Source: an uncultured Actinomycetes bacterium (GTDB lineage Bacteria; Actinomycetota; JAICYB01). Taken from it: a DNA stretch of 64,000 bases. This document shows positions 1-23,693 of the stretch, one piece after another. The first letter of the stretch is position 1. Every line of letters begins with the position of its first letter. Location: contig CAZLKN010000007.1 of assembly GCA_964560135.1 (NCBI GenBank), forward strand, positions 8,418 to 72,417, in the 5' to 3' direction. Under the pieces are notes generated by a model. The model ran no database searches. It was not told the origin of the DNA and saw only the letters and a list, made by a program, of their open reading frames with translations. The translations under genes and the position numbers were made by a program.

Positions 1-1134
1 CTGGCCCGCCTGGGCGGCGGTCCCCGTGCTCTGCGTCTCAGAGCCGGCGGTGGCGTCCACGTCGTTGGAGGAGATGGCGTCGCCGGTGTGAGCGATCGAG
101 TTGGACGCCCCGTTCTGGGCCAGGAGCCGCACCCAACGTGCGTCACCCTCGACCCGGATCGTCACGTCCTGGGAGCCGGAAAGCGCGTCCCCGGTCGCCG
201 AGAGCGCATCCTGGGAGAAGAAGACATGGTTGTCGCCGGTCTGCCCGCCGGCCCCGAGGGGCGCGAGGGCATGCGGCTGCACCGGGACGGTCACTCCGTC
301 CGGTCCCGCGTATCCCATCCCGAGTCGAACGCTCTCTTCGGCCACGTACACCTCGATGTCGACGACGATGCTCATCCCTGCGGTCTGCACGAGAACATCG
401 AGGCCCGGGGGACCCCGGATGTCGTAGGAGATCAGGACCTGGCTCCCACCCCATGTGCAGTCCTCGTTCTGGACGGCCACCTGGAGGATGGAGCCGGTGT
501 CACCGGTCAATCCGTTGTCGAACACCTTGGTCTGGCAGGTCTGCTGCGGCGTGGTGCTGCTCGAGATCACCGCCTCATCGGACGGGGAAACGGGGGCCGC
601 GGGGGCAGGGCCCTGCGGCTGTTCGTCGGTCGCCTGGTCTGCTCCATCCGCGTCCTCGGCGTCTGTTGCATCGTCCGGGTGGTCCTCCCGGGCTCCGGCA
701 TGGCGGCCGCGCAGGCGCGTGGAGGCACTGTTCGCGGTTCCCGAAATCGCATCGGAGACGTCCTGGCGCCCCACTTCGACATCGGCTTCGGCGCCGTCGG
801 GGTCCGGAGGCGCGGTCGCGGTCGCGTCGGCCTCCTGCTCGGCGAGCGCCTCGTCCATCCAGGGGAACGGCCACGGCCACGGCGTGATCGCGGGGGTCGG
901 GGACGGGGTCGCGGCGACGGGGGTCGGCGTCGGCGCAGGGGTGGCAGCCGGTGTCGGTGCCGGTGTGGCCGTCGGTGCAGGAGAGGCCGTCGGTGCCGGA
1001 GAGGGCGTCACCTGGGGGGTGGCGCTCGCCGGCGGTGGAGAGGCCTCCTCCTGGGCATGGGAAACCGAGCCCGTCAGGATCAGGGCCGCCACCGCGGAGG
1101 CCACGAAGGCCAGCCGACGTATCAGATGCCTCAT
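1..1134 (-). CDS. Secreted repeat protein R0, paralog of the GDN/SGDA repeat family (start complete, C-terminus runs off the left window edge)
   Basis: Absent from the ORF track because it has no stop inside the window. Checked by hand: in the frame with plus-strand triplets 1-3, 4-6 and so on, there is no tta/cta/tca from nt 1 to 1167. ATG at 1134..1132 is preceded by AGGAG. N-terminus MRHLIRRLAFVASAVAALILTGSVSHA looks like a signal peptide and is followed by a PT-rich linker. The visible end reads QTGDNHVFFSQDALSATGDALSGSQDVTIRVEGDARWVRLLAQNGASNSIAHTGDAISSND, the same motif order as the four genes downstream. Confidence 0.7.
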   Translation of the reverse strand, partial: MRHLIRRLAFVASAVAALILTGSVSHAQEEASPPPASATPQVTPSPAPTASPAPTATPAPTPAATPAPTPTPVAATPSPTPAITPWPWPFPWMDEALAEQEADATATAPPDPDGAEADVEVGRQDVSDAISGTANSASTRLRGRHAGAREDHPDDATDAEDADGADQATDEQPQGPAPAAPVSPSDEAVISSSTTPQQTCQTKVFDNGLTGDTGSILQVAVQNEDCTWGGSQVLISYDIRGPPGLDVLVQTAGMSIVVDIEVYVAEESVRLGMGYAGPDGVTVPVQPHALAPLGAGGQTGDNHVFFSQDALSATGDALSGSQDVTIRVEGDARWVRLLAQNGASNSIAHTGDAISSNDVDATAGSETQSTGTAAQAGQ

Positions 1135-1256
1135 CCGGCTCCTGTCGTTTACCTGTGTCAAGAATCGTCACATCGGTGTCAAGAGCCCGGTACGCAGGGT
1201 ACGCCCTCGGACGGACCCCCCGCCACTCCGGATGTCCCCACCGCCCGGACAGAAAG

Positions 1257-1286
1257 GGAGAGGGCCCCCGGCTGGGGGCCCTCTCC
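1257..1286 (-). terminator. GC-rich hairpin, probable intrinsic terminator of the LPXTG gene
   Basis: 13-bp stem GGAGAGGGCCCCC/GGGGGCCCTCTCC with a 4-nt loop, 21 nt past the stop at 1308. On the minus strand it is followed by CUUUCU. Confidence 0.55.
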
Positions 1287-1307
1287 AGACTGCTGTGCAG
1301 GTCGTCC

Positions 1308-1757
1308 CTAGGACGCCAGGCTCATGCGGAGCCGGCGCAGCAGGACGCCACCGCCCGAAAGGGCGGCCATGCCGAGAGCGAAGATGTCGCCCACGTTGAC
1401 ACCCGTGACGGGCAGACGGTCCGGACCGGCAGGTCCCGGGCTCGCCGTCGGGGCAGGCGTCGCATCAGCGGCGCCGTCACCCGGACCGACCAGCTTGAGT
1501 CCCGGCAGGTCCATGATCAGGTGACCCTCGGCGTCCTCGCAGACCTCGAGCGCCGGCAGATCGAGGACATCCTCCACACAGGGACCGTGGTCGGTGTCAC
1601 CCATCTCACCGATCGCCGCAGCCTCGAGACCCCCGCCGGTGGCGCCATCCGCCACACCGTCTCCGGGAAGCCCGAGTTGGGCGAAGGCCGTCGAGCCCAT
1701 GCCGAGGAACACCCCGGTCACGGCCACGAGGACCATTGCCTTGAGCTTGTTCGTCAT
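1308..1757 (-). CDS. LPXTG cell-wall-anchored surface protein (sortase substrate), 149 aa
   Basis: Signal peptide MTNKLKAMVLVAVTGVFLGMGSTAFA. C-terminal sorting signal LPVTG, then hydrophobic GVNVGDIFALGMAALSGGGVLL, then the basic tail RRLR. Acidic body with two Cys. Confidence 0.8.
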   Translation of the reverse strand: MTNKLKAMVLVAVTGVFLGMGSTAFAQLGLPGDGVADGATGGGLEAAAIGEMGDTDHGPCVEDVLDLPALEVCEDAEGHLIMDLPGLKLVGPGDGAADATPAPTASPGPAGPDRLPVTGVNVGDIFALGMAALSGGGVLLRRLRMSLAS

Positions 1758-1831
1758 TCTGATTGCTCCTTTCCGACAACAAAACGACCTAACCAGTCGA
1801 ATCCACGTTCAGTGGACTCTAGAGGACCCGA

Positions 1832-2479
1832 CTATCCTGGTGCAATCACGTCCCAGGCGTAAAGGAACTCACGCGCCTCCTCGTCGGCGACCGCCCGGAA
1901 CGGGACGATCCGGTGCCGTGTCAGGGCTAACGCCGAACCGAGCAGGGCGGCCACGAGGCCCAGGCCTCCGGACATCGAAGCCGCACCGACCCTGCAGGCG
2001 CTGGCCGCTTCGGCGAGGAACGCGCCGAAACCCGTCAAACTCTTCTCTGAACGCTCATCTCGAGCCGTGGTCCCGGCATGGACGGCGTCCTCGACCGACC
2101 CAGAGGGCACCGGCCTGGCCGAGCGCGTCATGACCTGTTCGGGGGCGGGGGTCGCGGACATCGGGATGGTGTAGGTCGGCGCCTGCGCTGGGACCGGGTC
2201 CGCGGGGGCGGGATCCTCCGCGGTCACCGGCTCGGGCTCGGCCCCCTCCGCGACGGGCTCGGGGGCCGGCGGTGCGCCCGGCTCCTCACCTTCAGAGGGC
2301 GCAGGCGTCGTCACAGGCTCGGGGACCACCGGATTCGACGCGGGGAACTTCGTCTTTGAGTGGACCTCGTAGGGATCGGTCATCTCCGGCACGGAGGCGG
2401 ACGCGTGCCCGGCGGCCAGGAGCAGGGCGCCACCCACGAGCGCCATCGCGATGCCCACCGTCCGGACCGTGGTCCTCAC
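1832..2479 (-). CDS. Proline-rich exported protein with a C-terminal membrane anchor, unknown function
   Basis: GTG start preceded by GGGGAG. Signal peptide MRTTVRTVGIAMALVGGALLLAAGHASA, PE/PA-rich region, late hydrophobic segment GGLGLVAALLGSALAL followed by TRHR. Confidence 0.6.
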   Translation of the reverse strand: MRTTVRTVGIAMALVGGALLLAAGHASASVPEMTDPYEVHSKTKFPASNPVVPEPVTTPAPSEGEEPGAPPAPEPVAEGAEPEPVTAEDPAPADPVPAQAPTYTIPMSATPAPEQVMTRSARPVPSGSVEDAVHAGTTARDERSEKSLTGFGAFLAEAASACRVGAASMSGGLGLVAALLGSALALTRHRIVPFRAVADEEAREFLYAWDVIAPG

Positions 2480-2551
2480 ACCTGCTCCCCTTCGACACTC
2501 GGGTCCACAACAACGTCAGCGACCCGGCACGGGTATACCCGTACGGGCCGA

Positions 2552-2725: not shown

Positions 2726-2746
2726 GCGTACAGCGGCCCTGGTCGC

Positions 2747-5530
2747 CTAAGAGGCGGCCATGGCGGACAGCTCGAAGCTCGATGCGGAGCCGGTCGCCGC
2801 GGGCGCCAGGCCGCTCCCCGTAGAGAGGGCCGTGGACCCGCTGGTCGCGACACCGATCACCTGCGAGCCGGCCACCGCGTCGCCCGTGTGGGCATCCGCG
2901 GCCTGGCCGGCATCCAGGATCGAGTCACCGAGCTGCGACGACGAGGCCGTGTCGCCCGTGGACTCTGCCACGGCACCGAGCTGGCCTGTCGCGAAGTTGT
3001 CGGCGTCGGCTTCGAACGTCTCGGCGATGCTCGCGTCGTCGAAGTTCTGCAGCTGTGCGAGCACATCACCGTGGACGGTGCCGATCACCTGCGAGCCGGC
3101 CACCGCGTCGCCGGAAGAGACCGACGCGTGCTGACCGAGCGCGAGGGCGTTATCGCCGATCTGGGAGGCCGTAGCCTCGCCACCGTCGGCGACAGCGAGC
3201 GCCCCGACGTTGATACCGTTCGCGGCGTTGGTCGCCGTGGCGTCGCCCGTGACCGCAACCGCGTCAACGGCTGCGTTCTGGGTCTGCACCGTGGCGTCCC
3301 CGCCTGCGGTCCCGATCACCTGGGATCCGGCCACCGCGTCACCCGAGTACGCCTCCGCGAGCTGCCCGATCACGGCGTCGTTGTCGCCGATCTGGGAAGC
3401 GGATGCGTCCTCGTCGAACGCGAGGGCTTCAGGACCCGCGGTGAGCAGGTCGACCTCGTTCACGATGACGTCGAACGCGACGTCACCAGAGACCGAGGTG
3501 CTGGTGTCCGACGAGTTCTGTCCCTGGATCGAGACGTCCCCGCCGTCCGCCACCGCACCGGTGACCTGCGAGCCGGCCACTGCATCGCCGGAGGCGAGCA
3601 GAGCCTGCTGGTCGACCGCAACGCCGTTGGAGCCGTTCTGAACGGCCGTCGCCGCCCCGAACTCACCAACAGCCAGAGGTCCGGCCAGCGCTTCCTCGAC
3701 GAGATTGATCGTCGAGAAGGTGCCCACATCGCCGGTGAAGGCGAAGTCGTCGACCGAGTCGTTCTGGTTCTGCACCAGCACGCTCGAGCCGGCGATCACG
3801 CCCGTGACCTGCGAACCCGCGACCGCATCGCCCGAGGCGAGGTCGGCCGACTGGCCCGTGGCCAGGGTGTTGTCGCCGATCTGCGAGGCCGACGCTTCAT
3901 CGAAAACACCGATGGCGAAGGGACCCGCGACCGAGTTGGCGTTCACGTTACCGGTGCCACCGAAGAGCACGAACCCCGACAGCGCCAAGGCGTTGTCGGA
4001 GGTGTTCTGGTTCTGCACCGTCACGTCGCCGCCGATGGCACCCGTGATCTGGGCGCCGGCAACCGCATCGCCGGAAGCGAGCGCGGCAACCTGATCGGCG
4101 AGGAGCTCGTTGTCTCCGACCTGCGAGGCCGTTGCAGCCTCGAAGATCGCCAGGGCGAACGGACCCGCGACGGCGCCGGTCACCACATTGGTGTCCGAGC
4201 CGAGGGCCACGTCGCCCGAGAACGCGAAGCTGTCGGTGGAGGTGTTCTGCTGCTGGATCTCGCCCGTCGCACCGACGGCTCCGGTCACCTGGGAACCCGC
4301 GACCGCATCGCCGGAGGCGAGGTCGGCCGACTGGGCGATCCCCAGGTCGTTGTCACCGTTCTGGGTCGCCGAGGCGGGCGCGAAGATCGCGTCCGCGGTG
4401 GGACCCACCTGCACGAATTCGACGAGGTTCTCGACCCCGCCGAGTCCGACCGTGCCACTGAAGGCGGTGTCGCCTTCACTCGACTGCTGGTTCTGGACAG
4501 ACAGGTGTCCGGCCTGCTCGGTGACCAGGCCCGTGATCTGCGAACCGGCGACGGCGTCGCCGGAATGCGCACGGACGTCCTGGTCGATCTCCGCCGAGTT
4601 GTCGCCGACCTGGCTCGACTGAGCCTGGTCGTCGAACGCTCGGGCGGTGGGACCGACGACAACCGCCAGGGCCAGGTTCTCGGACTCGACATCACCCGAG
4701 AAGGCCGCCGCGTCCGTCGAGGAGCTCTGCCCCTGGACGGTGGACGAACCGTTCCCGACGATGCCGGTCACGAAGGACCCGGCCACGGCGTCACCCGACG
4801 AAGCCTCGTTGGACTGCGTCAGGACGGCGTCGTTGTCCCCGATCTGGCTGGCCGAGGCCTCCGCCTGGTCGGCGAAGGCGTTCGGGCCGAGGGCCAGATC
4901 ACCGAGGTTGAATGCGTCCACTGCGCCGGAGACGGCGACCGGGTCCGTTGCCGAGTTCTGGCTCTGGACCTCGTTGTCGCCGTTCGACACGATGCCGACG
5001 ACCTGCGAACCGGCGACCGCGTCACCGGTAGCAGCCCCGACGGTCTGGGACGCATCCAGCCGGTTGTCCCCGACCTGCGACGCCTGAGCGAGCGCGTCGA
5101 CCGATGTCGCCTCCGGACCGAGCACGTACGCTCCGTCGTTGGCGGCGGTCGCGGGACCCGACTCGGCGATGGCGCCATCCGAGGTGTTCTGCACCTGGAC
5201 GGTCGCTCCGCCGCCCACCGCGCCGGCAACCGTGCTCCCGGCCGCGGCGTCGCCCGAGTGGGCGGCCGCGTCCTGCGAGACGGTACCGGCGTTGTCCCCG
5301 TTCTGCGCCGCCTGGGCCGGGGCGCCGTCGGCACCCGCAGCCGGCCCCGCATTGAACGTCAGCGCGTTCTGTGCGGTGGCCGTATCAGACGTCGCATCCG
5401 AGTCGGTGGATGTGTTCTGTCCTTGCACCACAGTGGCCTCCTGGGCGGTTGCACTACCCGCCCAAGCCAGGAAGCCGAAGCAGCCGAGCGCGGCGAACAC
5501 CAGCCACCTGGCCAGTGTCCTGCGCTCCAT
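2747..5530 (-). CDS. Secreted acidic repeat protein R1 (927 aa, 11 repeats)
   Basis: RBS GAGGAGGAAGC before the ATG. Signal peptide MERRTLARWLVFAALGCFGFLAWAGSATA. The rest is 11 units such as TVQNQNTSDNALALSGFVLFGGTGNVNANSVAGPFAIGVFDEASASQIGDNTLATGQSADLASGDAVAGSQVTGVIAGSSV. By eye the mature chain has no Lys, Cys or Trp. Confidence 0.85.
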   Translation of the reverse strand: MERRTLARWLVFAALGCFGFLAWAGSATAQEATVVQGQNTSTDSDATSDTATAQNALTFNAGPAAGADGAPAQAAQNGDNAGTVSQDAAAHSGDAAAGSTVAGAVGGGATVQVQNTSDGAIAESGPATAANDGAYVLGPEATSVDALAQASQVGDNRLDASQTVGAATGDAVAGSQVVGIVSNGDNEVQSQNSATDPVAVSGAVDAFNLGDLALGPNAFADQAEASASQIGDNDAVLTQSNEASSGDAVAGSFVTGIVGNGSSTVQGQSSSTDAAAFSGDVESENLALAVVVGPTARAFDDQAQSSQVGDNSAEIDQDVRAHSGDAVAGSQITGLVTEQAGHLSVQNQQSSEGDTAFSGTVGLGGVENLVEFVQVGPTADAIFAPASATQNGDNDLGIAQSADLASGDAVAGSQVTGAVGATGEIQQQNTSTDSFAFSGDVALGSDTNVVTGAVAGPFALAIFEAATASQVGDNELLADQVAALASGDAVAGAQITGAIGGDVTVQNQNTSDNALALSGFVLFGGTGNVNANSVAGPFAIGVFDEASASQIGDNTLATGQSADLASGDAVAGSQVTGVIAGSSVLVQNQNDSVDDFAFTGDVGTFSTINLVEEALAGPLAVGEFGAATAVQNGSNGVAVDQQALLASGDAVAGSQVTGAVADGGDVSIQGQNSSDTSTSVSGDVAFDVIVNEVDLLTAGPEALAFDEDASASQIGDNDAVIGQLAEAYSGDAVAGSQVIGTAGGDATVQTQNAAVDAVAVTGDATATNAANGINVGALAVADGGEATASQIGDNALALGQHASVSSGDAVAGSQVIGTVHGDVLAQLQNFDDASIAETFEADADNFATGQLGAVAESTGDTASSSQLGDSILDAGQAADAHTGDAVAGSQVIGVATSGSTALSTGSGLAPAATGSASSFELSAMAAS

Positions 5531-5741: not shown

Positions 5742-5769
5742 GGAGGGGCCCCCTTGTGGGGGCCCCTCC
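5742..5769 (-). terminator. Intrinsic terminator downstream of R2
   Basis: 12-bp stem GGAGGGGCCCCC/GGGGGCCCCTCC with loop TTGT, 40 nt past the R2 stop. Followed on the minus strand by CUUUUCUCCU. Confidence 0.65.
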
Positions 5770-5809: not shown

Positions 5810-8194
5810 CTAGCTGACATCACCCGTGACCTGGGCGCCGGCCACCGCATCACCCGAGTCCGAAGACAGGGTCTGCGAAGCGACGAACCCGGTGTCACCG
5901 ACGGTGCTGGCCGAAGCCGTCGCAGTAGCGGAGAACGCCTCCGCGGTCAGCGAACCCGCTGCCGCGTTGTTGGCGAACCCGTTACCGGAGAGCGCGAACG
6001 AACCGAAGTCGTTGTTGCTGACCTGGATCGTCGCCTCCGGCGCCACGACGCCGGTGACCTGGGAGCCCGCAACTGCGTCTCCCGTGCCAACCGACACGTC
6101 CTGACCGAAGTCAAGGAAGTTGTCTCCGACCTGCGAGGCCGAAGCCACGCCGTCAGCATCCGCACTCGGGCCAAGATTGGCGTCGAGCAGGTTGTCTGCG
6201 AACACATCACCCGAGAACGCGAACGTGTCCTCGGATGTGTTCGTGTTCTGCACCACAGCTTCGCCACCGGCGACAACACCGGTCACCTGGCTGCCGGCGA
6301 CGGCGTCACCGCTGTCAGCGGCGATCACCTGGTCGGCAGAGGCGTCGTTGTCACCGATCTGCGAAGCAGACGCGGTGTCGAAGAAGGAGACCGCAGTCGG
6401 GCCTGCCTCCAAGATGCCGTCGTTCACGGCATCGACCTCACCGCTGACGGAGAAGGCGAAGTCGGCGACGTTGGTGTTCTGCACCGTGACGTCACCGTCG
6501 GCCACCACTCCCGTCACCTGGCCGCCGGCAACCGCGTCGCCAGAAGCGACATCGATCACCTGCGCCAGCGCGGCGGCGTTGTCGCCCGTCTGGCTGACCG
6601 TTGCATCGCCATCAGCGATGGCGCTCGGGCCGGCCTCGACGAAGGCGAGGTTGTCGGCGAACAGCTCACCGGAGACCGCGAATGCGACCTCCGTGTTGGC
6701 CGTGTTCTGCACGACAACATCGCCCGTGGCGACGATACCGGTGACCTGACCGCCAGCGACGGCGTCACCGGTCTCGCCCGTGATCTCCTGCGCCACGGCC
6801 GCGGTGTTGTCCCCCACCTGCGAGGCGGAGGCATCACCGAAGAACGAGTCCGCAGAGGGACCCGAAAGCGCAAATCCGAAGTTCACGGTGTCGACGCTGC
6901 CGGAGACGGCGAACGGGAGCACAGCGGAGAGCTGCTGCTGAACCGTGACGTCGCCGTGGCCCACAGCACCCACCACCTGGCCGCCCGCGAGGGCGTCCCC
7001 GGTGGTGCCGTCTGCGACCTGAGCAACCGCCACGTCATTGTCTCCGATCTGCGAAACCGTCGCATCTCCGTCTTCTGCAAATGCGTTCGGGCCGGCAAGG
7101 CCGAACCCGATGTTCACTGCCTCAGCGTCACCGCTGACTGCGAAGTCACCATCACTCGCTTGCTGGTTCTGAACCGTCAGGAACCCACCCTGGTCACCCA
7201 CGGCACCGGTCACCTGGGAGCCTGCCAGCGCATCACCGGTCGACGACTGCGCATCCTGCGCAACGTCGGCGGTGTTGTCGCCGGTCTGGCTCGCCGAAGC
7301 ACTGGTACCGAAGATGCTAGCTGCGTTAGGAGCGGCAGTGGCGAAGCCGACGTTGAGAGCCAACGTGTCTCCACTGGCCGCGAACCCGTCCTCAGACGAG
7401 CCCTGGTTCTGAACGGTCGCCGATCCGCCGACGATCCCCGTCACCTGTGACGAGGCCACTGCGTCGCCCGATTCGGCCTCCGAGGACTGCGTAAGTACCG
7501 CATCGTTGTCCCCGATCTGGCCGGTCTGAGCGACGCCGTCGGTCGAAAAGGCGGTCGGTCCAGCAGCTGCGAGCCCGAGGTTCACCACTTCGGCGTCGCC
7601 GGATTCGGCGAACGCGTCGGTGGCGTTGTTTGTGTTCTGAACGACGTGCTCGCCGTCACCCACGATGCCCGTGATCTGCCCACCGGCGACAGCGTCACCG
7701 GTAGCAGCGGCACCGAACTGGGAAACAGCAGTGTCGTTCGAACCAACCTGGCTCGTCTGGGCGGTACCGTCATCGGTGGAGGCCGAAGGGCCCGTCGTGA
7801 CGTTGGCGTCGTTCACCACGTCTGCATCCCCGGACACCGCAACCGGATTGGTCGCGTTGTTCGTGTTCTGCACCGTGGCGTCATCCGCCACAACACCGGT
7901 CACCTGCGCCCCAGCCACGGGATCGCCACTCTCGGCGGTCCCGGACTGCGACACGTTCGCGGTGTTGTCGCCCAGCTGCTGGGACGAAGCCCCCGTGTCT
8001 CCCGTGGCTGCAGGGCCCCCCGCGAAATCGGCGTTGTTCTCGCCGCTCGCGGTACCCGTCTCAGCCTCGGAATCCGTCGAGGTCTGCGTCCCCTGGACCG
8101 TGGTCTCCGCGTTCGCGGCATTCGCCGCGAACAGGAAACCGAAGCAAGCGAGCGCGGAGACGAGCAGCCACCTGGCTACTGTCCTGCGCTCCAT
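5810..8194 (-). CDS. Secreted acidic repeat protein R2 (794 aa, 10 repeats)
   Basis: The track ORF 5810..8401 was trimmed to the internal ATG at 8194, which is preceded by AGGAGGAAGC. From there the N-terminus MERRTVARWLLVSALACFGFLFAANAANA aligns with the R1 signal peptide. By eye the mature chain has no Lys, Arg, Cys or Trp. Confidence 0.85.
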   Translation of the reverse strand: MERRTVARWLLVSALACFGFLFAANAANAETTVQGTQTSTDSEAETGTASGENNADFAGGPAATGDTGASSQQLGDNTANVSQSGTAESGDPVAGAQVTGVVADDATVQNTNNATNPVAVSGDADVVNDANVTTGPSASTDDGTAQTSQVGSNDTAVSQFGAAATGDAVAGGQITGIVGDGEHVVQNTNNATDAFAESGDAEVVNLGLAAAGPTAFSTDGVAQTGQIGDNDAVLTQSSEAESGDAVASSQVTGIVGGSATVQNQGSSEDGFAASGDTLALNVGFATAAPNAASIFGTSASASQTGDNTADVAQDAQSSTGDALAGSQVTGAVGDQGGFLTVQNQQASDGDFAVSGDAEAVNIGFGLAGPNAFAEDGDATVSQIGDNDVAVAQVADGTTGDALAGGQVVGAVGHGDVTVQQQLSAVLPFAVSGSVDTVNFGFALSGPSADSFFGDASASQVGDNTAAVAQEITGETGDAVAGGQVTGIVATGDVVVQNTANTEVAFAVSGELFADNLAFVEAGPSAIADGDATVSQTGDNAAALAQVIDVASGDAVAGGQVTGVVADGDVTVQNTNVADFAFSVSGEVDAVNDGILEAGPTAVSFFDTASASQIGDNDASADQVIAADSGDAVAGSQVTGVVAGGEAVVQNTNTSEDTFAFSGDVFADNLLDANLGPSADADGVASASQVGDNFLDFGQDVSVGTGDAVAGSQVTGVVAPEATIQVSNNDFGSFALSGNGFANNAAAGSLTAEAFSATATASASTVGDTGFVASQTLSSDSGDAVAGAQVTGDVS

Positions 8195-11822: not shown

Positions 11823-11852
11823 GGAGAGGGGCCCCCGTCGGGGCCCCTCTCC
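11823..11852 (-). terminator. Intrinsic terminator downstream of R4
   Basis: 13-bp stem GGAGAGGGGCCCC/GGGGCCCCTCTCC with a 4-nt loop, 22 nt past the R4 stop. Followed on the minus strand by UUUUCCC. Confidence 0.7.
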
Positions 11853-14598: not shown

Positions 14599-16806
14599 TC
14601 AGCGGACGTCGAAGGCGTCCACGAAGGTGAACCCGTAGCGGGAGCTGGGGTTCTTGTCCCCGGTCACGACCACCTCGATCGTGTGGGAGCCGACACCGAG
14701 ACCGGTGGCCTCGAAGAGCACCACCCGGTGGCTGGTGGCGGACGAGTAACTGTCGACCCGGTCAACCACGCTGCCGTCGATCCGGACCTCGGTGATGCCC
14801 CCGTCGGGGTCGCGCATCCCGATCCACCGGATGTCGGTGCCCGTGAAGGTGAAGGCCGCGCTGTCCCCGGTCCGCAGGGCCCGGCTGTAGCCGCCGCCGC
14901 TGGCCGACGAATCCGACCGCGTGCGCCAGCCACCGTCGTAGACGATCGCCGACGAGCCGTCCTCGGTCCGCTGCCAGGTCCCGGGGGCCGTCGTCGGGGT
15001 CGGGGTGGGCGTGGGCGTCGGTGTCGGTGTGGGCGTCGGGCTGGCGGTCGGTGTCGGGGTGGGGGTCGGCGTCGGGTCGGGGTCGCTCGAGGCGCCACCG
15101 GACGAGGCCTCGAAGGCGTCCACGTAGGTGAAGCCATACCGGGAGTCGGGGTGCTTGTCCCCCGTCACGACCAGCTCGATCGTGTGCGGTCCGGCCGTCA
15201 GTCCCGAGACCTCGTATATGACCTTCTGGTACTCGGTGGTCGAGGCGTAGCCGTCGATACGCCCGACGAACGCGCCGTCGACCCTGACCTCCGTGATCCC
15301 GGCGTCCGACGAACGGATACCGATCCAGCGCGCCGCCGTGCCGTCGAAGGAGAAGGTGACCGAATCACCCGTGTAGCGAGAGTACGTGTACGTCCCCCCG
15401 CTCACGAGCGAGGAACTCCTGGTCCGCCAGTACCCCGAGTACGACGGGCTCGAGGAGTTGTCCTCGGTGCGGGTCCACACGCCGTCGGGTTCCGGCGTCG
15501 GCGTGGGGGTGGGACTCGCGGTCGGTGTCGGGCTCGGGTCGCTCTCGGAGGCACCCACGGCGCGGGCGAGGTTCAGACGGCCCTCACTCGACACCTTCCC
15601 GGCCAACGCCGGGATCTTGTCCACGCTGGACAGCAGCCGGTCGCGTACCGAGGTGTAGCTCCACCCCGGGTTGGCGGCCCAGACCAGCGCCGCCGCCCCC
15701 GCCACCGCGGGAGCCGACATCGAGGTCCCACTCATGTACATGTAGCCGCCGGGCACGGTCGAGTAGATCGACGAGCCGGGGGCCCCGATGTGGACGGTGG
15801 TCGGGCCGTAGCTGGAGAAGGACGACAGGTTGTCGTACCGGTCGGTGGATGCCACGGTCACGACGTTGGCGTTGGAGCAAGTGGCGGGCCACGTGGCCCG
15901 CGTGTCGTTGTTGCGCCCGTCGTTGCCGGCAGCGGCCACGAACAGCACGCCCCTGGCCTTCGCGTACTCGAGGGCGTCGAAGATCACCGACGGGCAGCTT
16001 CCGGAGCCGCCCCAGGATGCGTTCATCACGGTCTTGCGCCCCGTGGAGGAGGCGTGGTCGGCGACCATCCGGATCGCCTGGGCGCCACCGCTGGAGGAGA
16101 AGTCGAAGGGGACGTCGACGAGCCCGACCTCCCAGTTGACCCCCGAGACTCCGAGGCTGTTGTTCCCCCGGGCCCCCGCGATGCCCGCGACATGCGATCC
16201 GTGCCTGCAGGAGGACGAGGAGAACGGGCAATTCCCCTGGAAGAGCCTGGTCAGGTAGTTCGGACTCAGGTCCTCGTGTGTCTCCTGGAGGCCCGTGTCG
16301 ATCACGGCGACCGAGACCGCCGAGGAGCCTTTCGTCACCGTCCACGCATCGGTGGCGGAGATGTCGGCACCCGGCGTGCCGCCGGACTGTCCGGTGTTCT
16401 CGAGGCCCCACTGCACGCCGAAATTCGGGTCATTGGGGACGACGGCGAACGGTTCGGCCAGGAAATCGGGTTCCGCGAAGCGGACCCGCCGGTCCGACCG
16501 GTAGGCACGGAGACGTTTGTCGAGGTCAGCGCCCGACGCGAGCCGCACCACCTCCACGTGCAGAGGTTCGATCCGCCGCTCCACCCGGTCGCCCCCGCGG
16601 TCGCGGTGGGTACGTGCGCGGTCCACGCCGCTGGTCCGGGGCTGAAAACCGACCACGATGCGATCGGGAGCGTACGAGCCGGCGGGCGTCTCGGCCCCCG
16701 CGCCCGGACCGCCGGCCGGAAGGAGCGTGAGCAGGAGCGCCACGGCAGCGGCGATCGTCCCCGTCCTTTCCCAGCGTCCACCCATCTCGATCGTGCCTCT
16801 CGTCAA
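14599..16806 (-). CDS. Secreted subtilisin-like (S8) serine peptidase with two C-terminal beta-sandwich (carbohydrate-binding-like) domains
   Basis: Catalytic motifs VAVIDTGL (Asp), [10 protein letters not shown] (His), AAAGNDG and [12 protein letters not shown] (Ser). An inhibitor_I9-like propeptide sits after the signal sequence. Two similar domains of about 125 aa (W-x-RTED ... GITEVR-x-DG ... HTIE-x-VVTGDK-x-P-x-SRYGFT-x-VDAF) are separated by PT linkers. The start codon (16806 or 16785) is uncertain. Confidence 0.9.
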
Positions 16807-16892: not shown

Positions 16893-18224
16893 TCACAGGA
16901 ACCCTCGCGCCCAGCCGGCCACGAAGACGCCGACCGCGGCGAAGGCGAACACGACCAGCAGGACCGAGGCGATCCGGCCGGACAGCCGGGCGCCGACCTC
17001 CGGGATCACCCGAGGGAACCGGCCGGACAGGCCGACCGGCGCACGCGGGATTCGGCCGGGGATGAGCACCGCGGCCCACCGGGCTCCGGCAGCAGCCCCG
17101 ATGAGGACCGCGCCGAGGGCCCAGACCGGGGGCTGGGGGATCGGCGCACCGGCCAGCCTCCCCGGGATCGTCGCCGCGGGGGCCCAGACCGCCAGGAGCG
17201 CACCGACACCGAGCAGTCCTGCGAGCCACACCCCTGCCAGGGGGCCTACCCGGCCTTTCGGGCGGCTGGTGGCGACGGCCGTCCGCCCGGCGAGACCGAG
17301 CATGAGAGCCAGGAGCACCACCGCCCCCTGCGATCCGCCCGACGCCGTGGCGCCCGCCGAGACGGCCACCACCACCGCGACCAGCGGCGACGGGAACCCG
17401 CCGCCGCGAACCGCCGCGGCTGTGATCCGGATCCATGCAGGCCGGGAGCCGGCCAGCCGGACGAGATGCAGGATCGTGCCCGCCCCGAGCACCCCCCACA
17501 ACCACCCCGGCGGAACCGCACCGGTCACCGCACCGCCGATCGCCACCGCCGCGAGACCGATCTCCCCCGCCCCGTCACGCACGCCGGGCCGCGCCGCCGT
17601 CGTGGCGCCGGCGAACACGACCGCACCGGCGAACACGGCCACGGTGGCTGCCACATCGGCAGCACCCGCCCCGAGCATCAGCAGGACAACCGCCTGCGTG
17701 CGGACGACCAGGAGACCGCTGGAGGGCAGCCGCTCCAGCGGACCCGCGCTCAGCGCCACCCGCCCGAGGGCCGCCGCTACCAGCAGGAGCGCCGGGCCCG
17801 TCCCGAGATCCCCCGGCCAGGTCACGAACCCGCGGGCCCATACCGACCACACCACCGCGGCCACGACGGGCACATCGCAGGCCAGCGTCCCCGCCAGCCA
17901 GCGTCGCCGGCTCTCGACGTCGTGCGAGGGCTCCACCCGGACCGCCAGCACCCCGATCATCCACGCCGCCAGGAAGGCCGCTGCGTTCGGTGCCGCACCG
18001 GCCACGAGGATCCCGGCGGCGCCCACCGCGGGGACCGCCACCCGGCGCGGCTGGGGGCCCACAAGCGTCAACCCGCCGGCAGTGACCGCCGTCCAGGCCC
18101 CGATCACCGCCACCGGCCCGCCGGTCGCGGCCGCCGCCACGGCGGCACCCAGCCACACCACGGCGGCGCCCCGGGTCCCCAGGAGGGACGCAAGCGCCGC
18201 CGCCGCGAACCACGCGAGAGTCAT
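16893..18224 (-). CDS. Polytopic integral membrane protein (443 aa), unknown function
   Basis: The track ORF 16893..18833 was trimmed to the ATG at 18224 (MTLAWFAAAALASLL...). The discarded upstream 203 codons are Arg/Gly-rich junk overlapping the next gene in another frame. About 12 Ala/Gly/Val/Leu-rich hydrophobic segments. Confidence 0.6.
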   Translation of the reverse strand: MTLAWFAAAALASLLGTRGAAVVWLGAAVAAAATGGPVAVIGAWTAVTAGGLTLVGPQPRRVAVPAVGAAGILVAGAAPNAAAFLAAWMIGVLAVRVEPSHDVESRRRWLAGTLACDVPVVAAVVWSVWARGFVTWPGDLGTGPALLLVAAALGRVALSAGPLERLPSSGLLVVRTQAVVLLMLGAGAADVAATVAVFAGAVVFAGATTAARPGVRDGAGEIGLAAVAIGGAVTGAVPPGWLWGVLGAGTILHLVRLAGSRPAWIRITAAAVRGGGFPSPLVAVVVAVSAGATASGGSQGAVVLLALMLGLAGRTAVATSRPKGRVGPLAGVWLAGLLGVGALLAVWAPAATIPGRLAGAPIPQPPVWALGAVLIGAAAGARWAAVLIPGRIPRAPVGLSGRFPRVIPEVGARLSGRIASVLLVVFAFAAVGVFVAGWARGFL

Positions 18225-18745
18225 CGCGCGAAGCCGGTCACGAGGATCCCCGCCGCGGCCAGCGCCACCAACGACGCGGCGGGCAGCCGGGCCGCGAGCG
18301 GGCGGAGGAGCAGGGCGGCGAGAGCCAGACCGATGCCTGCTCCCGTCCACCAACCGAGCACCACCCACGGATCGGCCCCACCGGGCCCCGGGGCGCAGTA
18401 CATCGGGATCAGCACCACCAGCGCCGCCACCGTCGCCGCCCGGGCCACCGGCGGAGCCGTCCGCAGCGGCCGGCGGGACAGCTCGAGCAGCGCTGCTGCC
18501 AACAACAGCACGGAGCCCACCACGAGCAGCGGTGAGCCCGTGGCCACCGTCGGACCGAGGAGCCGCGTGGCGGCTTGGACGTCGGCCAGCGTGGTGGTGC
18601 CCCAGCGCAGGCCCGCCCCCAGACACGCGATCCCCCACGCGACATCGGGGGAAGACCCCAGAGCCCAGCGGATGGTCCAGAGACCCGCGACGATCCAGAC
18701 GATGCCTCCGTCGGACCCGAATGCGCCCACGGCCACCGCGGCCAC
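18221..18745 (-). CDS. Integral membrane protein (174 aa), translationally coupled to the downstream 443-aa membrane protein
   Basis: 4-5 hydrophobic segments. Its TGA stop overlaps the ATG of the next gene (ATGA at 18221..18224). Confidence 0.5.
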   Translation of the reverse strand: MAAVAVGAFGSDGGIVWIVAGLWTIRWALGSSPDVAWGIACLGAGLRWGTTTLADVQAATRLLGPTVATGSPLLVVGSVLLLAAALLELSRRPLRTAPPVARAATVAALVVLIPMYCAPGPGGADPWVVLGWWTGAGIGLALAALLLRPLAARLPAASLVALAAAGILVTGFAR

Positions 18746-18795
18746 ACCCGCACCGACGAGGGCTCCGCGGACGGTACGGGGCTGCAGGTCGGTGG

Positions 18796-19179
18796 CTACT
18801 TCGACGCCTCCCGTCCCCGGCCGCCATCCTCACGACCGAGCCCGAGCTGCGAGCGCAGATGGTTCCACGAGCAGTCGGTGCACACCTCGACGGTGTAGAG
18901 CCGCACCTCCCGGAGCTTCAACAGGGGTGCGAGGTCGTCGCGCGGCCACACACGCCCGTTCTCGCGTTTCGACAACTCATCGGAGAACACGTAGGAGACC
19001 AGCACGAGCCTCCCCGTGCTGCACACCGGGCAGGCCTGCTCCGTCTGCTCACCGCAGTAGTTGGCAGCGCGGAGCAGATCAGGATGCGCGTCACAGACCT
19101 CAGCCCGCGACACGTGTCCGGCTTGGACGGCCCGGAGGAGAGCCTTCCGGGCGAGCGAGTAGTCCACCGTCGGGTGCAT
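18796..19179 (-). CDS. Small conserved Cys-rich protein, DUF5318-like by size, Cys pattern and neighbourhood
   Basis: Trimmed to MHPTVDYSLARKALL... (127 aa). Cys motifs are CPVC and CTDC plus two further Cys. From memory, actinobacteria carry a DUF5318 gene near padR-ino1. Confidence 0.5.
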   Translation of the reverse strand: MHPTVDYSLARKALLRAVQAGHVSRAEVCDAHPDLLRAANYCGEQTEQACPVCSTGRLVLVSYVFSDELSKRENGRVWPRDDLAPLLKLREVRLYTVEVCTDCSWNHLRSQLGLGREDGGRGREASK

Positions 19180-19273: not shown

Positions 19274-21997
19274 TCAGACCGCGCCGTAGACCGTGACCTC
19301 GATCGTCGGTCCGTCGGTCTCGAGGTTCCCTGCGTAGTCCTGGGACTGCACCTGGAAGCGCCATGTGCCGGGCCCCAGACTGCTCGTGTTGAGCTGCCAG
19401 GTCACCTCGCTGGCGTTGGGGTGGGACTTGGCCGCCGGCTGGGCGAAGTACCCCCCGCCGTCGACCCTCGTCCCGATGAGATAGACCAACTGGATATCCG
19501 ACGTCGCGGGGCTCTCCACCGTCTCGCCCTCGAGGCTCACGGTGCTGAACCGCAACGGTGTGAACGGCACCGAGAGGCGGAAGAACTGCGCGCCGGACTC
19601 CGTGGTCCACGTCGACACGGGTGTGGTCAGGTCCAGGATGGACGTTCTCGTCACCGTGGTCGTCTGCCCGAAGGAGTCGGTCATCTCGGCGACGAACGTC
19701 ACCTCGCCCTCGACCAGATCGCTGAGATCGATCTGGAAGGCCCAATCCTCCTCGCTCGAACCGTCGCCCAGCAGCTTGGGCCCGTCCGAGGCGGTGTTCC
19801 CCTCCTCGTCGGTCGCGGTCATCGTCGCGCTGACCGGCGAAACCACCGTGGAGGCGTCCCTGTCGAGGTTGATCGTCTCCGTGCCGATGGGCGAGCTGTC
19901 CCCGCTGGTGCGCTCGGCGTTGATGAACTGCGGCAGATCGAAGGAGAAGACCCCCGCGGTCACGTGCAGATTCGAATCGTCGGTGGCCGAGGCGCTGTTG
20001 CCGGCCAGGTCCACGCCGGTGACCGTGGCCACGATCGGGCCCTCGTCGAGCTCCCCGAAGCAGTCCATGTCGAAGACCTCAGAGCCGACACGTGGCTGGT
20101 CCGTCAGGAGGCATTCGGCGGGAGCCGCGGCGCCCACGTTGGCCACACCGACCTCGACATCGGGCCCGGTCTCGTCGACATCCCAGTCGATCGTGACGCC
20201 GGAGGAGGCCTCCGCAGCGGTCACGATCCCGTCACCATCGAGCATCGAGATGCTCACGGCCGGCGGGATCGTGTCCTTGACCGAAGCCACGCTGCGCAGC
20301 GAAGACCGGTTGTCCACGTCGTCGAACCATTGCACGAAGAACCGGAAGGTGCCCTCCGGCAGGTTCGCCGCGCAGTCCGGGTTCAAGGAGTCCGTCCCCG
20401 ACGGCCCGAAGATGAACGGGCCACAGCCGTCCGGGATCCGGTTGTCACGCCGGATCGAGGAGTTGCTCCACTGGAACCACACCTCGGCCCCCGCCACGTC
20501 CGCGCCCGGATCCTCGGTCCAGGAAACCGGCACACCGCTGGCGGCATCGGCCGCGTTGACGAAGCCGTCGCCGTCGTCGATGGCCGCCGTGCCTGCTGCC
20601 GGGATCGTGGTCTTCTTCAGCGCGTCGACCGACGCCTGCGAGGCGTTGCCGAGCGCATTCGTGGCCACGGCCACGTAGGTGACGGTGCCGTCCGCCAGCG
20701 TGGAGACATCGATACCGGACACCGACCAGTTGCCGTCACCGTCGACGGTGGCGGGGAAGGGGCCGAGGTCCAGGGCGCCGTCCGTCGCCGACACGTCCAC
20801 CGTGGCACCAGGATCGGTCGTGCCCGACGCGTCGGTGGATGTCTGGGCCGCGGCGTTGATCGGGTCGGTGACCTCGGTGATGTCGATCGCGGGACCTTCG
20901 CGGTCCAGGATCCCGATCACCGACCCCGAACCGGCGTTGCCGGCGAGGTCCCCACCGGCGACGGTCGCCGTGAGCTCGCCGTCCAGCAGCTCGTCGAAGC
21001 AGGAGGCGTGGAAGAGCCGCTCGGTGCGCTGCGTCGGGTACCCGCGGGGGCGGCCGGTGAACACGCACTCCGCCGGTGCCTCCGACCCGGTGTTGGCGAG
21101 GGACGCTTCGACCGTGCCGCCGTCCTCGTCGGCGAGCCAGCGGAGCCGGACCCCGGCGTCGATGTGGGGCTCGGCGATGTGCCGGACACCATCGATGATG
21201 ACGCCGTCGCGGAACTGGACGGTCCACGTCGGCGCGACGGTGTCTTTGACCGTGGTGTCGCCGGCCTCAGAGGACATGTTGCCCGCCTCGTCCGCCCAGG
21301 TGCCCGCGAACAAGACCGTGCCGTCGGGCAGGTTGCCCGCGCACGTCGGGTTCAGGGAGCCGGTCCGCGTCGCAGCTCCGGTAAAGGGACCGCAGCCGGA
21401 CGGGATGTTGGCCGCGGAGTCCTCGAACCACACGGTGGCCGACACCGCATCCGACAGCGGATCGGCCTCGATCTGGACCGGGACACCCGAGGCCACGTCG
21501 TCGGCGTTGATGAAGCCGTCGCCGTCGTCGATGGTCAGCGTGCCCGGGTCGGGCGCGATCCGGTCGATCACGGAACGGTTGTCGGAGACCGCGACGTCGC
21601 TGTTGGTTCCGCCGTCGGTGGCGACGGCACGGGCGCAGGTCTCCGTGCCCTCGGGGAAGGTGCCGGTGTCCGACAGGTCGAAGGGACCCGCCTCCCAGGC
21701 GCCGTCCGGATTCAGGGTCGCGCCCTGCGTCGGCGTGCCTGCCGTGGTCGACAGGCAGGGCTCCTTGGTGACCCGTGCCGTGATCGACGTGATGCCGGCC
21801 CCCGTGTCGTAGGTACCGGACAGCATCACGCCGTCGGTGATCTCCTGGGCGTTGAGGAAACCGTCCCCCCCGTCCTCGATGTGGACCGTCGGCTCGGGGA
21901 CGGCCGCGTGCGCGGGGCTCGCGAGGGCCAGCATCCCGCCCACAACCGCGAGCACCACGAAAGAGGCCAGATGAACCGGCCGCGATGCGTGCTGCAT
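19274..21997 (-). CDS. Secreted Ig-like-domain repeat protein (adhesin-like), 907 aa
   Basis: Trimmed to the ATG at 21997, preceded by GGGGGGAAAG. Signal peptide MQHASRPVHLASFVVLAVVGGMLALASPAHA. Recurrent DGDGF(I/L/V)NA-x-(D/E) segments, conserved Cys pairs (GCGPF...NP-x-CA-x-NLP-x-GT and PAEC...CF-x-EL) and DLAGN/DEAGN motifs. Confidence 0.8.
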   Translation of the reverse strand: MQHASRPVHLASFVVLAVVGGMLALASPAHAAVPEPTVHIEDGGDGFLNAQEITDGVMLSGTYDTGAGITSITARVTKEPCLSTTAGTPTQGATLNPDGAWEAGPFDLSDTGTFPEGTETCARAVATDGGTNSDVAVSDNRSVIDRIAPDPGTLTIDDGDGFINADDVASGVPVQIEADPLSDAVSATVWFEDSAANIPSGCGPFTGAATRTGSLNPTCAGNLPDGTVLFAGTWADEAGNMSSEAGDTTVKDTVAPTWTVQFRDGVIIDGVRHIAEPHIDAGVRLRWLADEDGGTVEASLANTGSEAPAECVFTGRPRGYPTQRTERLFHASCFDELLDGELTATVAGGDLAGNAGSGSVIGILDREGPAIDITEVTDPINAAAQTSTDASGTTDPGATVDVSATDGALDLGPFPATVDGDGNWSVSGIDVSTLADGTVTYVAVATNALGNASQASVDALKKTTIPAAGTAAIDDGDGFVNAADAASGVPVSWTEDPGADVAGAEVWFQWSNSSIRRDNRIPDGCGPFIFGPSGTDSLNPDCAANLPEGTFRFFVQWFDDVDNRSSLRSVASVKDTIPPAVSISMLDGDGIVTAAEASSGVTIDWDVDETGPDVEVGVANVGAAAPAECLLTDQPRVGSEVFDMDCFGELDEGPIVATVTGVDLAGNSASATDDSNLHVTAGVFSFDLPQFINAERTSGDSSPIGTETINLDRDASTVVSPVSATMTATDEEGNTASDGPKLLGDGSSEEDWAFQIDLSDLVEGEVTFVAEMTDSFGQTTTVTRTSILDLTTPVSTWTTESGAQFFRLSVPFTPLRFSTVSLEGETVESPATSDIQLVYLIGTRVDGGGYFAQPAAKSHPNASEVTWQLNTSSLGPGTWRFQVQSQDYAGNLETDGPTIEVTVYGAV

Positions 21998-22227
21998 GGT
22001 CTTTCCCCCCTTGCCATCCTGCCGGAGGTCACCATCTCGACCGGGACCACGAAGCACCCGCCGGGGGGGAAAGGCAGGCAACCACCTCTTGAGCGCACAC
22101 CCCTCGCGGCGCTCCGGACCCCGGAACCCGTCTCCCAGGACGGGTTCGGACTACCGGCTACGTCGCAACAGCCTTCGACATCGTTGCGTCGAAATCCTCC
22201 CCGCTACTGGCATGATCCCCAAAGACG

Positions 22228-22256
22228 GCGACGGCCCCCGGATCGGGGGCCGTCGC
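22228..22256 (-). terminator. GC hairpin downstream of the 471-aa Ig-like protein gene
   Basis: 13-bp stem around GACGGCCCCCG/CGGGGGCCGTC with a 3-nt loop, 21 nt past the stop at 22278. Confidence 0.45.
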
Positions 22257-22277
22257 GATGTCCGATCGCGGTACCGG

Positions 22278-23693
22278 CTAGAGAGCTCCGATGACCGTCA
22301 GTTCGATCTGGTCGGGGGCGCCGAGGTTGCCCGCCTCGTCCTGGGCGTAGGCGGTCAACTCCCACTCGCCGGGCTCCAGCGGAGCGTCCAGCGACCATGT
22401 CGTATCGGCCGCGGGCTTGTTCTCCAGTTTCGCCGTCCGCTCGAACCGGATGTTCCGGTCCGCATTGAACCCCGAGATGTATACCAACTGGATCGGGGAG
22501 GTCTGGCCGGGATCGGTCACGGTCCCCTGGAGGTCCGCGGTCCCGGTCCTGAAGATCAACGGGACCTGGATACGGAAGTACGTAGACCCGTCGGCCGTGG
22601 TCCATTGGGTGATCGGAGCGGTCACATCCAGCACCGTCGATGTCGAAGCAGCGTGTGTCGAGGTATCCGTAGTGATGACACCGTCGATGGTCACCGGGCC
22701 GTCGGCCAGGGCCGAGACGTCCACAGCGACCGTACGCGTCTCCTCAGACGACGTCCCCGCCATGTCCTTGGGGTCGGAGACCGCCGAATCGCCGTCCTCG
22801 TCCGTCACCGTCACGACCGCGCTGGCTTCGGCGTCACCCAGCTCCGGGAAGTCGAACAGCACCTTGAGCGCCGTCCCGTCCTCGGTGTCGGTCGCGTTGG
22901 CGTGCTGCGTGCCTGCCAGCACCGAGATCGACAGGATGCGGTCGAGGACCGATCCCGCTGAGGCCGCGCCCACGTTGCCGGCGAGGTCCTCGCCGGCGAC
23001 GGTGAAGTCGATCGCACCGTCGGTCAGGACGTCGAAGCAGCCCGGACCCACGAACACCGACTCGGGGCCCCGCGGCAGGTCGGCGAACGTACATTCCACC
23101 GGCGCCGCCTCGCCCGTGTTCGCGACCGTCAGCGTGGCATCCGGACCGTCCTCCTCGACGTGGTAGAGAACCTCGACCCCCGCGGCTGCGAGGTCCGATC
23201 CGATGTCCCCGTCGTCGTCGAGAACGTCGATCACCGCCGGAGGCGGCGTGGTGTCGATCTCGGGTCGGCTGACCGAGAACCCACGGTCGCTCATCCCGTC
23301 GGGGTTGTGTGCGCGCGCCTGGGCGCAGACGATCTGGCCTTCGGGGAACGCGGACAAGTCGAAGGGACCGAGGTCGAAGGTCCCGTCGGGGTTGATCGTG
23401 GCCTCCTGCGGATCGGTCTTCAATGGCGCGTCGATGTCGCAGTTCTCCTCGGCGACGAACCGTCCGGTCACCTTGGTGACGCCTGCGCCGGTGTCGTAGG
23501 TGCCGGTCACCATGACCCCGGCCGCGATCTCCGAGGCGTTCAGGAACCCGTCGCCGCCATCGGCGATCTCGACCGTCGGCGCCGGCGGGACGGCCGCATG
23601 AGCTGGACTCGCTGCCAGAACGCCGGAAGCGAGCGCCAGGATCAGTGCAACCGCGAGACGCGGGTAGCGCTTGTGCTGTGATGTTTGCTGCAT
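22278..23693 (-). CDS. Secreted Ig-like-domain protein, short paralog of 19274..21997 (471 aa)
   Basis: Trimmed to the ATG at 23693, preceded by GAGGGGGAG. Signal peptide ...LAVALILALASGVLAASPAHA. The N-terminal (AVPPAPTVEIADGGDGFLNASEIAAGVMVTGTYDTGAGV) and C-terminal (IQLVYISG...AQDEAGNLG) modules align with the larger paralog. Confidence 0.8.
   Translation of the reverse strand: MQQTSQHKRYPRLAVALILALASGVLAASPAHAAVPPAPTVEIADGGDGFLNASEIAAGVMVTGTYDTGAGVTKVTGRFVAEENCDIDAPLKTDPQEATINPDGTFDLGPFDLSAFPEGQIVCAQARAHNPDGMSDRGFSVSRPEIDTTPPPAVIDVLDDDGDIGSDLAAAGVEVLYHVEEDGPDATLTVANTGEAAPVECTFADLPRGPESVFVGPGCFDVLTDGAIDFTVAGEDLAGNVGAASAGSVLDRILSISVLAGTQHANATDTEDGTALKVLFDFPELGDAEASAVVTVTDEDGDSAVSDPKDMAGTSSEETRTVAVDVSALADGPVTIDGVITTDTSTHAASTSTVLDVTAPITQWTTADGSTYFRIQVPLIFRTGTADLQGTVTDPGQTSPIQLVYISGFNADRNIRFERTAKLENKPAADTTWSLDAPLEPGEWELTAYAQDEAGNLGAPDQIELTVIGAL

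Follow-up and report, generated by a model that had tools for sequence, protein, structure and literature searches.

In Mycobacterium- and Streptomyces-type genomes a conserved group of genes follows the order ino1-padR-DUF5318-ponA1-GT87(Rv0051-like)-rpsF-ssb-rpsR-rplI-dnaB. On contig CAZLKN010000007.1 of an uncultured Actinomycetes bacterium, of which a 64-kb stretch (hereafter the window) was analysed, these backbone genes keep their relative order and orientation and enclose ~24 kb of clustered genes for exported proteins. The slot that in the mycobacterial-type arrangement is occupied by a penicillin-binding protein (PBP) and a GT87 protein differs here: both genes are missing, lineage-specific genes totalling 19 kb stand in their place, a gap of 4.7 kb separates padR from DUF5318, and ssb precedes rpsF instead of following it. 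Among described surface assemblies, the Streptomyces chaplins comprise sortase-anchored long chaplins and secreted short chaplins, with 5-kDa peptides and an LAXTG signal. With moderate confidence, we read the block at positions 1 to 23693 as a cell-envelope gene cluster that is specific to a lineage of uncultured soil Actinomycetota, has been inherited vertically and encodes a coat or fibres for the cell surface together with their wall and membrane anchors; the surface role is suggested by the anatomy of the genes.

Gene content and conserved setting

Raw lists of open reading frames (ORFs) are full of spurious frames because the G+C content of the window is ~69%; genes were called by third-position G+C (GC3) combined with a frame plot. 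This analysis gives 13 genes within 1..23693, all on the minus strand, and no plus-strand gene, as had been claimed from the sequence alone. The genes, the predicted terminators and the right-hand flank are as follows.

1..1134, minus strand: g1, repeat protein, truncated at the window edge (full length 675 aa on contig L001)
1257..1286, minus strand: GC-rich hairpin terminator after g2, with a 13-bp stem followed by a T-run
1308..1757, minus strand: g2, 149-aa secreted protein with an LPVTG sorting signal and two conserved Cys
1832..2479, minus strand: g3, 215-aa bitopic protein with a Pro-rich ectodomain
2747..5530, minus strand: g4, 927 aa, ~10 units of ~77 aa and a conserved Gly/Ser-rich C-terminal tail
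5742..5769, minus strand: GC-rich hairpin terminator after g5
5810..8194, minus strand: g5, 794 aa, 10 regular units of 76-79 aa, no Lys
8489..11548, minus strand: g6, 1019-aa divergent repeat protein with 7 Cys
11825..11850, minus strand: GC-rich hairpin terminator after g7, of the sequence type shared with the other two
11875..14313, minus strand: g7, 812-aa repeat protein
14599..16785, minus strand: g8, secreted S8 subtilase
16893..18224, minus strand: g9, 443-aa polytopic membrane protein with ~10-12 transmembrane (TM) segments, of a lineage-restricted family
18221..18745, minus strand: g10, 174-aa membrane protein with ~4-5 TM segments and a conserved RWGT..L.D.Q.AT motif
18796..19179, minus strand: g11, DUF5318, a cytoplasmic Cys-rich protein
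19274..21997, minus strand: g12, 907-aa secreted Big_13 immunoglobulin (Ig)-like protein, an internally duplicated version of g13
22278..23693, minus strand: g13, 471-aa secreted Ig-like paralogue of g12
23950..25726, plus strand: padR (from 23950) and ino1 (from 24620), the right-hand limit of the conserved backbone

This inventory bears out the sequence-only reading, which had named five repeat proteins (g1 and g4-g7), an LPXTG protein, a Pro-rich anchor, an S8 protease, two coupled polytopic membrane proteins, a small DUF5318-like Cys-rich gene and two Ig-like proteins. Its statement that every product but that of 18796..19179 carries a signal peptide or TM segments also holds: all block proteins except g11 either start with a hydrophobic segment that carries an AxA-type site or contain several TM segments, as judged by a Kyte-Doolittle hydropathy heuristic alone, used without a dedicated signal-peptide predictor. 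No Pfam or NCBIfam model matched g1-g7, g9 or g10, even at E <= 10, and an Rfam scan of the block returned no family.

The same-strand run continues past the left window edge, where the sequence was read from identical metagenomic contigs (L001), into ssb, rpsF, rpsR, rplI and dnaB; the one-strand layout therefore owes part to the conserved orientation of the backbone. The proposed proximity to the origin was confirmed, as the genes rnpA, yidC, dnaA (49323), dnaN, recF, gyrB and gyrA occupy 48.6-58 kb and the cumulative GC skew is lowest near 50 kb. oriC is placed near 50 kb because of this rnpA-to-gyrA gene order and the skew minimum; the block is thus 25-49 kb to its left, so that the minus strand is the leading strand and the block is co-oriented with replication. 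Sequencing runs holding the block sequence are of soil DNA only.

Conservation of the backbone was assessed by scanning 185,579 species genomes (GTDB) for DUF5318, which yielded 18 loci, at <= 55% identity, from Acidimicrobiia, Nitriliruptorales and unclassified Actinomycetota. Eleven of the 18 have a detected padR, which abuts DUF5318 divergently in every one of them (~110-340 bp), in agreement with the map on which the sequence-only reading had relied. The rpsF-ssb-rpsR-rplI(-dnaB) genes are found 0.7-9 kb downstream of DUF5318, and the content of the slot varies, consisting of PBP/GT87, a histidine kinase or metabolic genes; the classical DUF5318-TM-PBP-GT87-rpsF content is seen in L019 and L018, where an unrelated polytopic protein, a class A PBP and a GT87 protein occupy the slot. 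No homologue of g1-g10, g12 or g13 was present in any of the 18 loci. The backbone is therefore kept without the block genes and the block is lineage-specific, as had been proposed. DUF5318 (g11) is part of the backbone and not of the module suggested by the sequence-only reading.

The gene order of the ribosomal protein operon is itself altered in this lineage: ssb lies before rpsF (ssb-rpsF-rpsR-rplI) and rpsF abuts rpsR (L001 3933-5532; L003 17615-19197), the usual rpsF-ssb-rpsR-rplI order being found in the other Actinomycetota loci in which these genes were detected (L015-L027).

The wording that the module had been assembled into this neighbourhood survives in one sense only. GC3s does not set the block apart (0.849, compared with 0.860 in the rest of the window; p = 0.32), and recent horizontal transfer of the block was therefore rejected; any assembly would be an old event. 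The synonymous-codon fit of the block is marginally lower, measured against a reference set built from the comparison genes themselves.

Gene order among closer relatives

Closer relatives were reached through searches with the repeat family and the g9 family. Five metagenomic relatives repeat the order Ig/DUF5318/TM-TM/(S8)/g7/g6/g5/g4/g3/g2/g1/ssb, with one-to-one orthologues for each repeat paralogue; it is seen in L028, L030 with L036, L040 with L003, and L008. The synteny comparison called for by the sequence-only reading thus found the block genes not scattered but in the same order. L028 carries S8, g7-, g6-, g5- and g4-like genes and the start of g3, at 51-58% to the best-matching window counterparts. 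L030 has S8 followed by g7-, g6- and g5-like genes, and L036, from the same sample, has a g1-like gene, ssb, rpsF, rpsR, rplI and dnaB (83% identical). L008 reads ino1, padR, one Big_13 gene, DUF5318, g10, g9 and then a g7-like gene.

L040 and L003 form one 72-kb contig, which carries, in order, a Big_13 protein, DUF5318, g10-, g9-, g7- and g6-like genes and, after a ~14-kb island within the repeat array (L040 13883-23174 and L003 1-5836), continues with g5-like, g4-like, g3, g2, g1 and ssb through dnaB. The island, lying between the g6-like and g5-like genes, encodes ATP sulfurylase/APS kinase, a sulfate-type transporter, an ABC exporter, GT9, three sulfotransferases, GH57 and GT4/5. Its products may modify surface polymers or the repeat proteins, and a sulfation/glycosyltransferase island fits surface-polymer biology. 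By precomputed Pfam annotation, the DnaB (L003 20191-21966) and UDP-glucose dehydrogenase (L040 1-1454) of this relative carry intein-splicing domains.

Orthology is resolved for the individual repeat genes. g4 corresponds to L028_10001 (54%) and L003_10001 (52%), g5 to genes in L028 (51%), L030 (51%) and L003 (53%), g6 to genes in L028 (52%), L030 (48%) and L040 (47%), and g7 to genes in L028 (58%), L030 (53%), L040 (51%) and L008 (43%), while g1 orthologues stand directly upstream of ssb in L004 (42% identity) and L036 (46%). g4-type and g6-type orthologues each retain the C-terminal tail of their own type, that of g6 being a conserved ..DGLxW..GGFVG.. end.

A more distant metagenome-assembled genome (MAG) from NCBI, L029, contains ino1, padR, DUF5318, g10-like, g9-like (39%), a short S8, g3-like and two g2-like LPXTG genes followed by ssb, and is without repeat proteins, g1 or Ig genes. 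The block is therefore layered and not monolithic. The older core would consist of the coupled g10-g9 pair, usually the S8 subtilase, the bitopic Pro-rich g3 and the LPXTG wall-anchored g2. A second layer, added in a sub-lineage, would comprise the four non-redundant paralogues g7, g6, g5 and g4 and the chimeric g1, and the third the Ca-type Ig-like proteins, whose number ranges from 0 to 2. On this model the cluster would fill the slot of variable content that separates DUF5318 from the ssb/rpsF operon, and a smaller insertion would lie between DUF5318 and padR.

Protein families of the block

g4-g7 and the C-terminal half of g1 are made of ~77-aa units with the consensus SGDAVAGSQVTGxVG..TVQNQNxSxDxxAxSGDAxAxN..GPxA..ASQxGDNxxxxxQ. 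Lysine is absent from g4-g7 (0 of 3552 residues, compared with 2-6% in core proteins of the window), Arg is 0.4-2.4%, acidic residues make up 11-13% and the pI is ~4. The repeat proteins start and end at unit boundaries without a cap or anchor domain; across 96 family members only whole units occur, in many cases with a short Gly/Ser tail after them. A search of the block for DNA-level tandem repeats of ~231-bp period found none; the units have diverged at the DNA level and are therefore old and maintained.

The repeat family is uncharacterised: its predicted structure is highly confident, yet neither the known families nor the solved structures include a detectable relative. Among 5.8 billion proteins a word-seeded search gave 97 relatives, all unnamed and from soil or other metagenomes or 'Actinomycetota bacterium' MAGs, and a metagenome scan with a single-unit repeat alignment gave 7 loci. 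The repeat profile had no match among PDB sequences at E <= 1, g4-g7 matched neither Curlin_rpt nor any other Pfam family at E <= 10, and neither RTX (HemolysinCabind nonapeptide) nor SLH domains were found in them with Pfam and NCBIfam. In L007 (4807-5477) a PIN/PhdYeFM toxin-antitoxin pair lies between two repeat-family genes, followed by six unannotated exported proteins.

An AlphaFold2 model of g7, built on an alignment of 47 family relatives, has a mean predicted local distance difference test score (pLDDT) of 92.1 and a predicted template-modelling score (pTM) of 0.86 over 812 aa; it consists of a signal helix followed by unbroken beta strands, ~8 per unit, in one continuous all-beta structure. 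A Foldseek search of PDB with this model gave no match with E < 1, and nothing meaningful was found among viral models. The list of weak matches, all with E > 1, consists of the beta-solenoid proteins EtpA, FapC, RsaA, CsgA and Ag43 and the Ca-dependent antifreeze protein 3p4g. Predicted secondary structure, pTM and this list, as opposed to coordinates, together suggest a solenoid geometry for g7. The units would form one continuous, cap-less, strongly polyanionic all-beta fold. Head-to-tail strand complementation between subunits was considered and rejected, the apparent permutation being an artefact of the point at which units were cut.

g1 differs in layout, with a signal peptide, a Pro-rich linker, a WPWPFPW motif, an acidic region and a two-Cys domain preceding ~5 repeat units, and is a candidate adaptor or base subunit. 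The motif, at residues ~85-95 as TPWPWPFPWM after the Pro-rich linker, is common to g1 and its L004 orthologue. In Actinomyces, an exoplasmic FPW motif enables SafA binding to the housekeeping sortase (PMC9282373); the likeness of the g1 motif to it is a lead at the level of coincidence.

g2, g3 and g9/g10 are uncharacterised. g2 has the features of an LPXTG sortase substrate, namely an N-terminal hydrophobic segment as signal peptide and a C-terminus reading LPVTG-VNVGDIFALGMAALSGGGVLL-RRLRMSLAS, in which the hydrophobic stretch is followed by a positive tail. Orthologues are present in L003 (63% in pairwise alignment, LPKTG) and as two copies in L029 (LPATG, LPKTG); a metagenome scan with the g2 alignment gave no relatives. 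g3, separated from g2 by 75 bp, has an N-terminal signal peptide or TM segment, a Pro-rich region, a C-terminal TM segment and a conserved cytoplasmic tail ending LYAWDVIAPG, with orthologues in L003 and L029 and a fragment in L028.

g8 is a secreted subtilase (Peptidase_S8, PF00082: 161.9 bits, gathering cut-off 21.8, E 2.7e-47) whose translation retains the Asp/His/Ser triad in the motifs VAVIDTG, HGSHVAG and GTSMSAP. A fervidolysin-type prodomain precedes the S8 catalytic domain and two Pro/Thr-linked beta-sandwich (CE2_N-like) modules follow; the nearest solved structures are deseasin MCP-01 and thermitase. S8 genes stand at the g8 position in L028 and L030, and a shorter one in L029. Identity as a mycosin of a type VII secretion system was rejected, since TIGR03921 scores 128 bits against a cut-off of 278.75, there is no C-terminal TM segment and no Ecc genes were found in the window.

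The long ORF 16893..18833 was resolved by frame plot into g10 and g9, the only translationally coupled pair, in which the g10 stop overlaps the g9 start as ATGA at 18221-18224. The g9 family has only 51 representatives among 1.84 billion sequences in an exhaustive profile search, nearly all of full length and with no tail of distant relatives. g9 and g10 orthologues follow DUF5318 in L008, L029 and L040. Comparison by BLASTP and hhalign with the polytopic proteins downstream of DUF5318 in L019 and L018 gave no homology, and a relationship of g10 and g9 to them was rejected. g11, 51 bp from g10, matches DUF5318 (PF17249) at 121.8 bits (gathering cut-off 31, E 2e-35); literature searches on DUF5318 and on the accession numbers gave no results. 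g12 and g13 are paralogues, 35% identical; Big_13 (PF19077, gathering cut-off 27) scores 46.7 bits in g12 and 21.8 bits, below the cut-off, in g13. g12 also matches Ig-like repeats of the Lap adhesin (6xi3, E 7.5e-18), and a single homologue occurs at the g13 position in L008 and L040.

The terminators after g2, g5 and g7 are near-identical hairpins, GGAG(A/G)GGGCCCC-loop-GGGGGCCC(C/T)CTCC followed by a T-run. In the whole 64 kb this hairpin type is limited to the three positions, with 0.4 matches expected by chance, and a 270-330 bp spacer lies upstream of each repeat gene.

Elsewhere in the window, a single T2SSE-type secretion ATPase (28298-29380) adjoins a CCA-adding enzyme gene, a pairing kept in L008, L015, L018, L019 and L029, with no further pilus or secretion genes seen alongside. 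The RtcB ligase ORF at 59010-60956 is 648 aa as bounded, with the RtcB domain beginning at residue 214, which points to an extended N-terminus or to a true start further along; just upstream, on the opposite strand, lies the gene for a secreted CAP-domain protein (58083-59054).

Competing explanations and comparison with known systems

In the envelope model, the repeat proteins would leave the cell by Sec and build a surface coat or fibres, tethered by g1, with its Pro-rich spacer and repeats, together with wall-anchored g2 and membrane-anchored g3. The subtilase and g10-g9 may process or assemble the repeat proteins, the least supported step.

Several observations weigh against this model. 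The three strong terminators divide the array into at least four transcription units and, with the long spacers, show that the repeat genes do not make up a single operon. Elsewhere, members of the repeat family are found singly or as pairs among unrelated metabolic genes, S8 is missing from two repeat-bearing relatives (L008, L040), and the Ig genes, numbering 0, 1 or 2, are dispensable in the relatives. No sortase domain was found among the window proteins scanned, g9/g10 belong to no recognisable family and the AlphaFold2 model of g9, from a 4-sequence alignment, is unusable (pLDDT 40). The kept order among fairly close relatives, as judged by dnaB (83% in L036), could reflect descent alone. 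The proposal of the sequence-only reading that the block is one functional system is thus only partly supported, being favoured by the order shared among relatives and opposed by the core-only L029, the variable S8 and Ig genes, the terminators and the solitary repeat-family members.

Much of the same evidence favours the main rival, in which the block is a hot spot and not a system. A tolerant, leading-strand, origin-proximal slot between DUF5318 and rpsF would have gathered unrelated genes for secreted proteins with independent roles, as a nutritional protease, adhesins and a separate coat protein family, their order reflecting shared ancestry. The wide differences in slot length and content among Actinomycetota, the unrelated 14-kb island in the L040/L003 array, the terminators between genes, the coming and going of S8 and Ig genes, the solo family members, the closeness of the relatives with a full array and the similarity of g8 to degradative subtilases all agree with this explanation. 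It does not readily account for the g3-g2 and g10-g9 pairs holding their positions in L029 at 37-48% identity, the order held by four repeat paralogues at ~50% identity, the translational coupling of g10 and g9, or the fixed place beside g2 of g1, which carries the repeats of g4-g7. We consider the hot spot unlikely, while regarding it as a serious competitor of the envelope cluster.

A bolder form of the envelope model, in which the block is an undescribed Gram-positive surface-assembly system, is doubtful. Here a polyanionic beta-solenoid coat or fibre of four specialised paralogues would be primed by g1, tethered by g2 and g3 and assembled by g10-g9 as a two-component membrane machine of no known family.

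It is improbable that the repeat proteins form curli-like templated fibres, polymerising end to end into functional-amyloid-like beta-solenoid filaments with g1 as a wall-tethered nucleator in the manner of CsgB or the long chaplins. The curli repeat motif is QxGxGNxAxxxQ. The SQxGDNxAxxxQ motif resembles it, the proteins lack cap domains, with both ends falling exactly on unit boundaries, the weak fold neighbours include FapC and CsgA, and g1 is a chimeric paralogue. However, neither Curlin_rpt nor any other Pfam family matched even at E <= 10, Foldseek E-values exceed 1, the subunits of 800-1000 aa are predicted to fold as monomers, and head-to-tail strand complementation turned out to be mere repeat register. 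Equally hard to credit is a function of the repeat proteins as polyanions, soluble or loosely attached, that bind cations or minerals (Ca2+ or ice), with no structural coat and with unrelated neighbours: the net charge of each molecule (about -90 to -130), the near absence of basic residues, Asp/Asn/Gly-rich turns, 3p4g among the weak fold neighbours and the soil metagenome source agree with such a role, whereas no RTX or other Ca-binding family matched and the four conserved, ordered paralogues and the g1 chimera are left unexplained.

For the all but undescribed surface architecture of deep uncultured soil Actinomycetota lineages, the cluster is a concrete, conserved candidate; its small anchor proteins and its pair of membrane proteins are as unclassified as the repeat family. 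If the repeat proteins do form a coat or fibres, they would constitute a new Gram-positive envelope building block and a protein scaffold that is rigid, highly charged and free of lysine; if not, the locus still shows a conserved origin-proximal neighbourhood acting as an insertion slot for lineage-specific envelope genes.

Among known systems, the cluster resembles the chaplins in combining secreted, anchorless paralogous subunits with a sortase-signal protein and a chimeric paralogue that possibly tethers them to the wall, and is unlike them in having no chaplin domain, repeat subunits of 800-1000 aa, an LPXTG signal and no sortase nearby. With curli (CsgA/CsgB) and Fap it shares secreted Gln/Asn/Gly-rich repeat proteins, of putative beta-solenoid fold here, and a putative paralogous nucleator, but the repeat is 77 aa long instead of ~20 aa and has no Pfam match, CsgG/FapF-type secretion genes are absent and the lineage is Gram-positive. 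Very acidic, extended beta-rich repeats are likewise found in the Ca-stabilised LapA/MpIBP adhesins and RsaA S-layer protein, RsaA and MpAFP being weak fold neighbours of g7; those proteins are Gram-negative type I secretion substrates with RTX, whereas the proteins described here have predicted Sec signal peptides and neither RTX nor SLH domains. In kind, the locus is nonetheless familiar: it is a Gram-positive surface-protein cluster with a sortase-type anchor.

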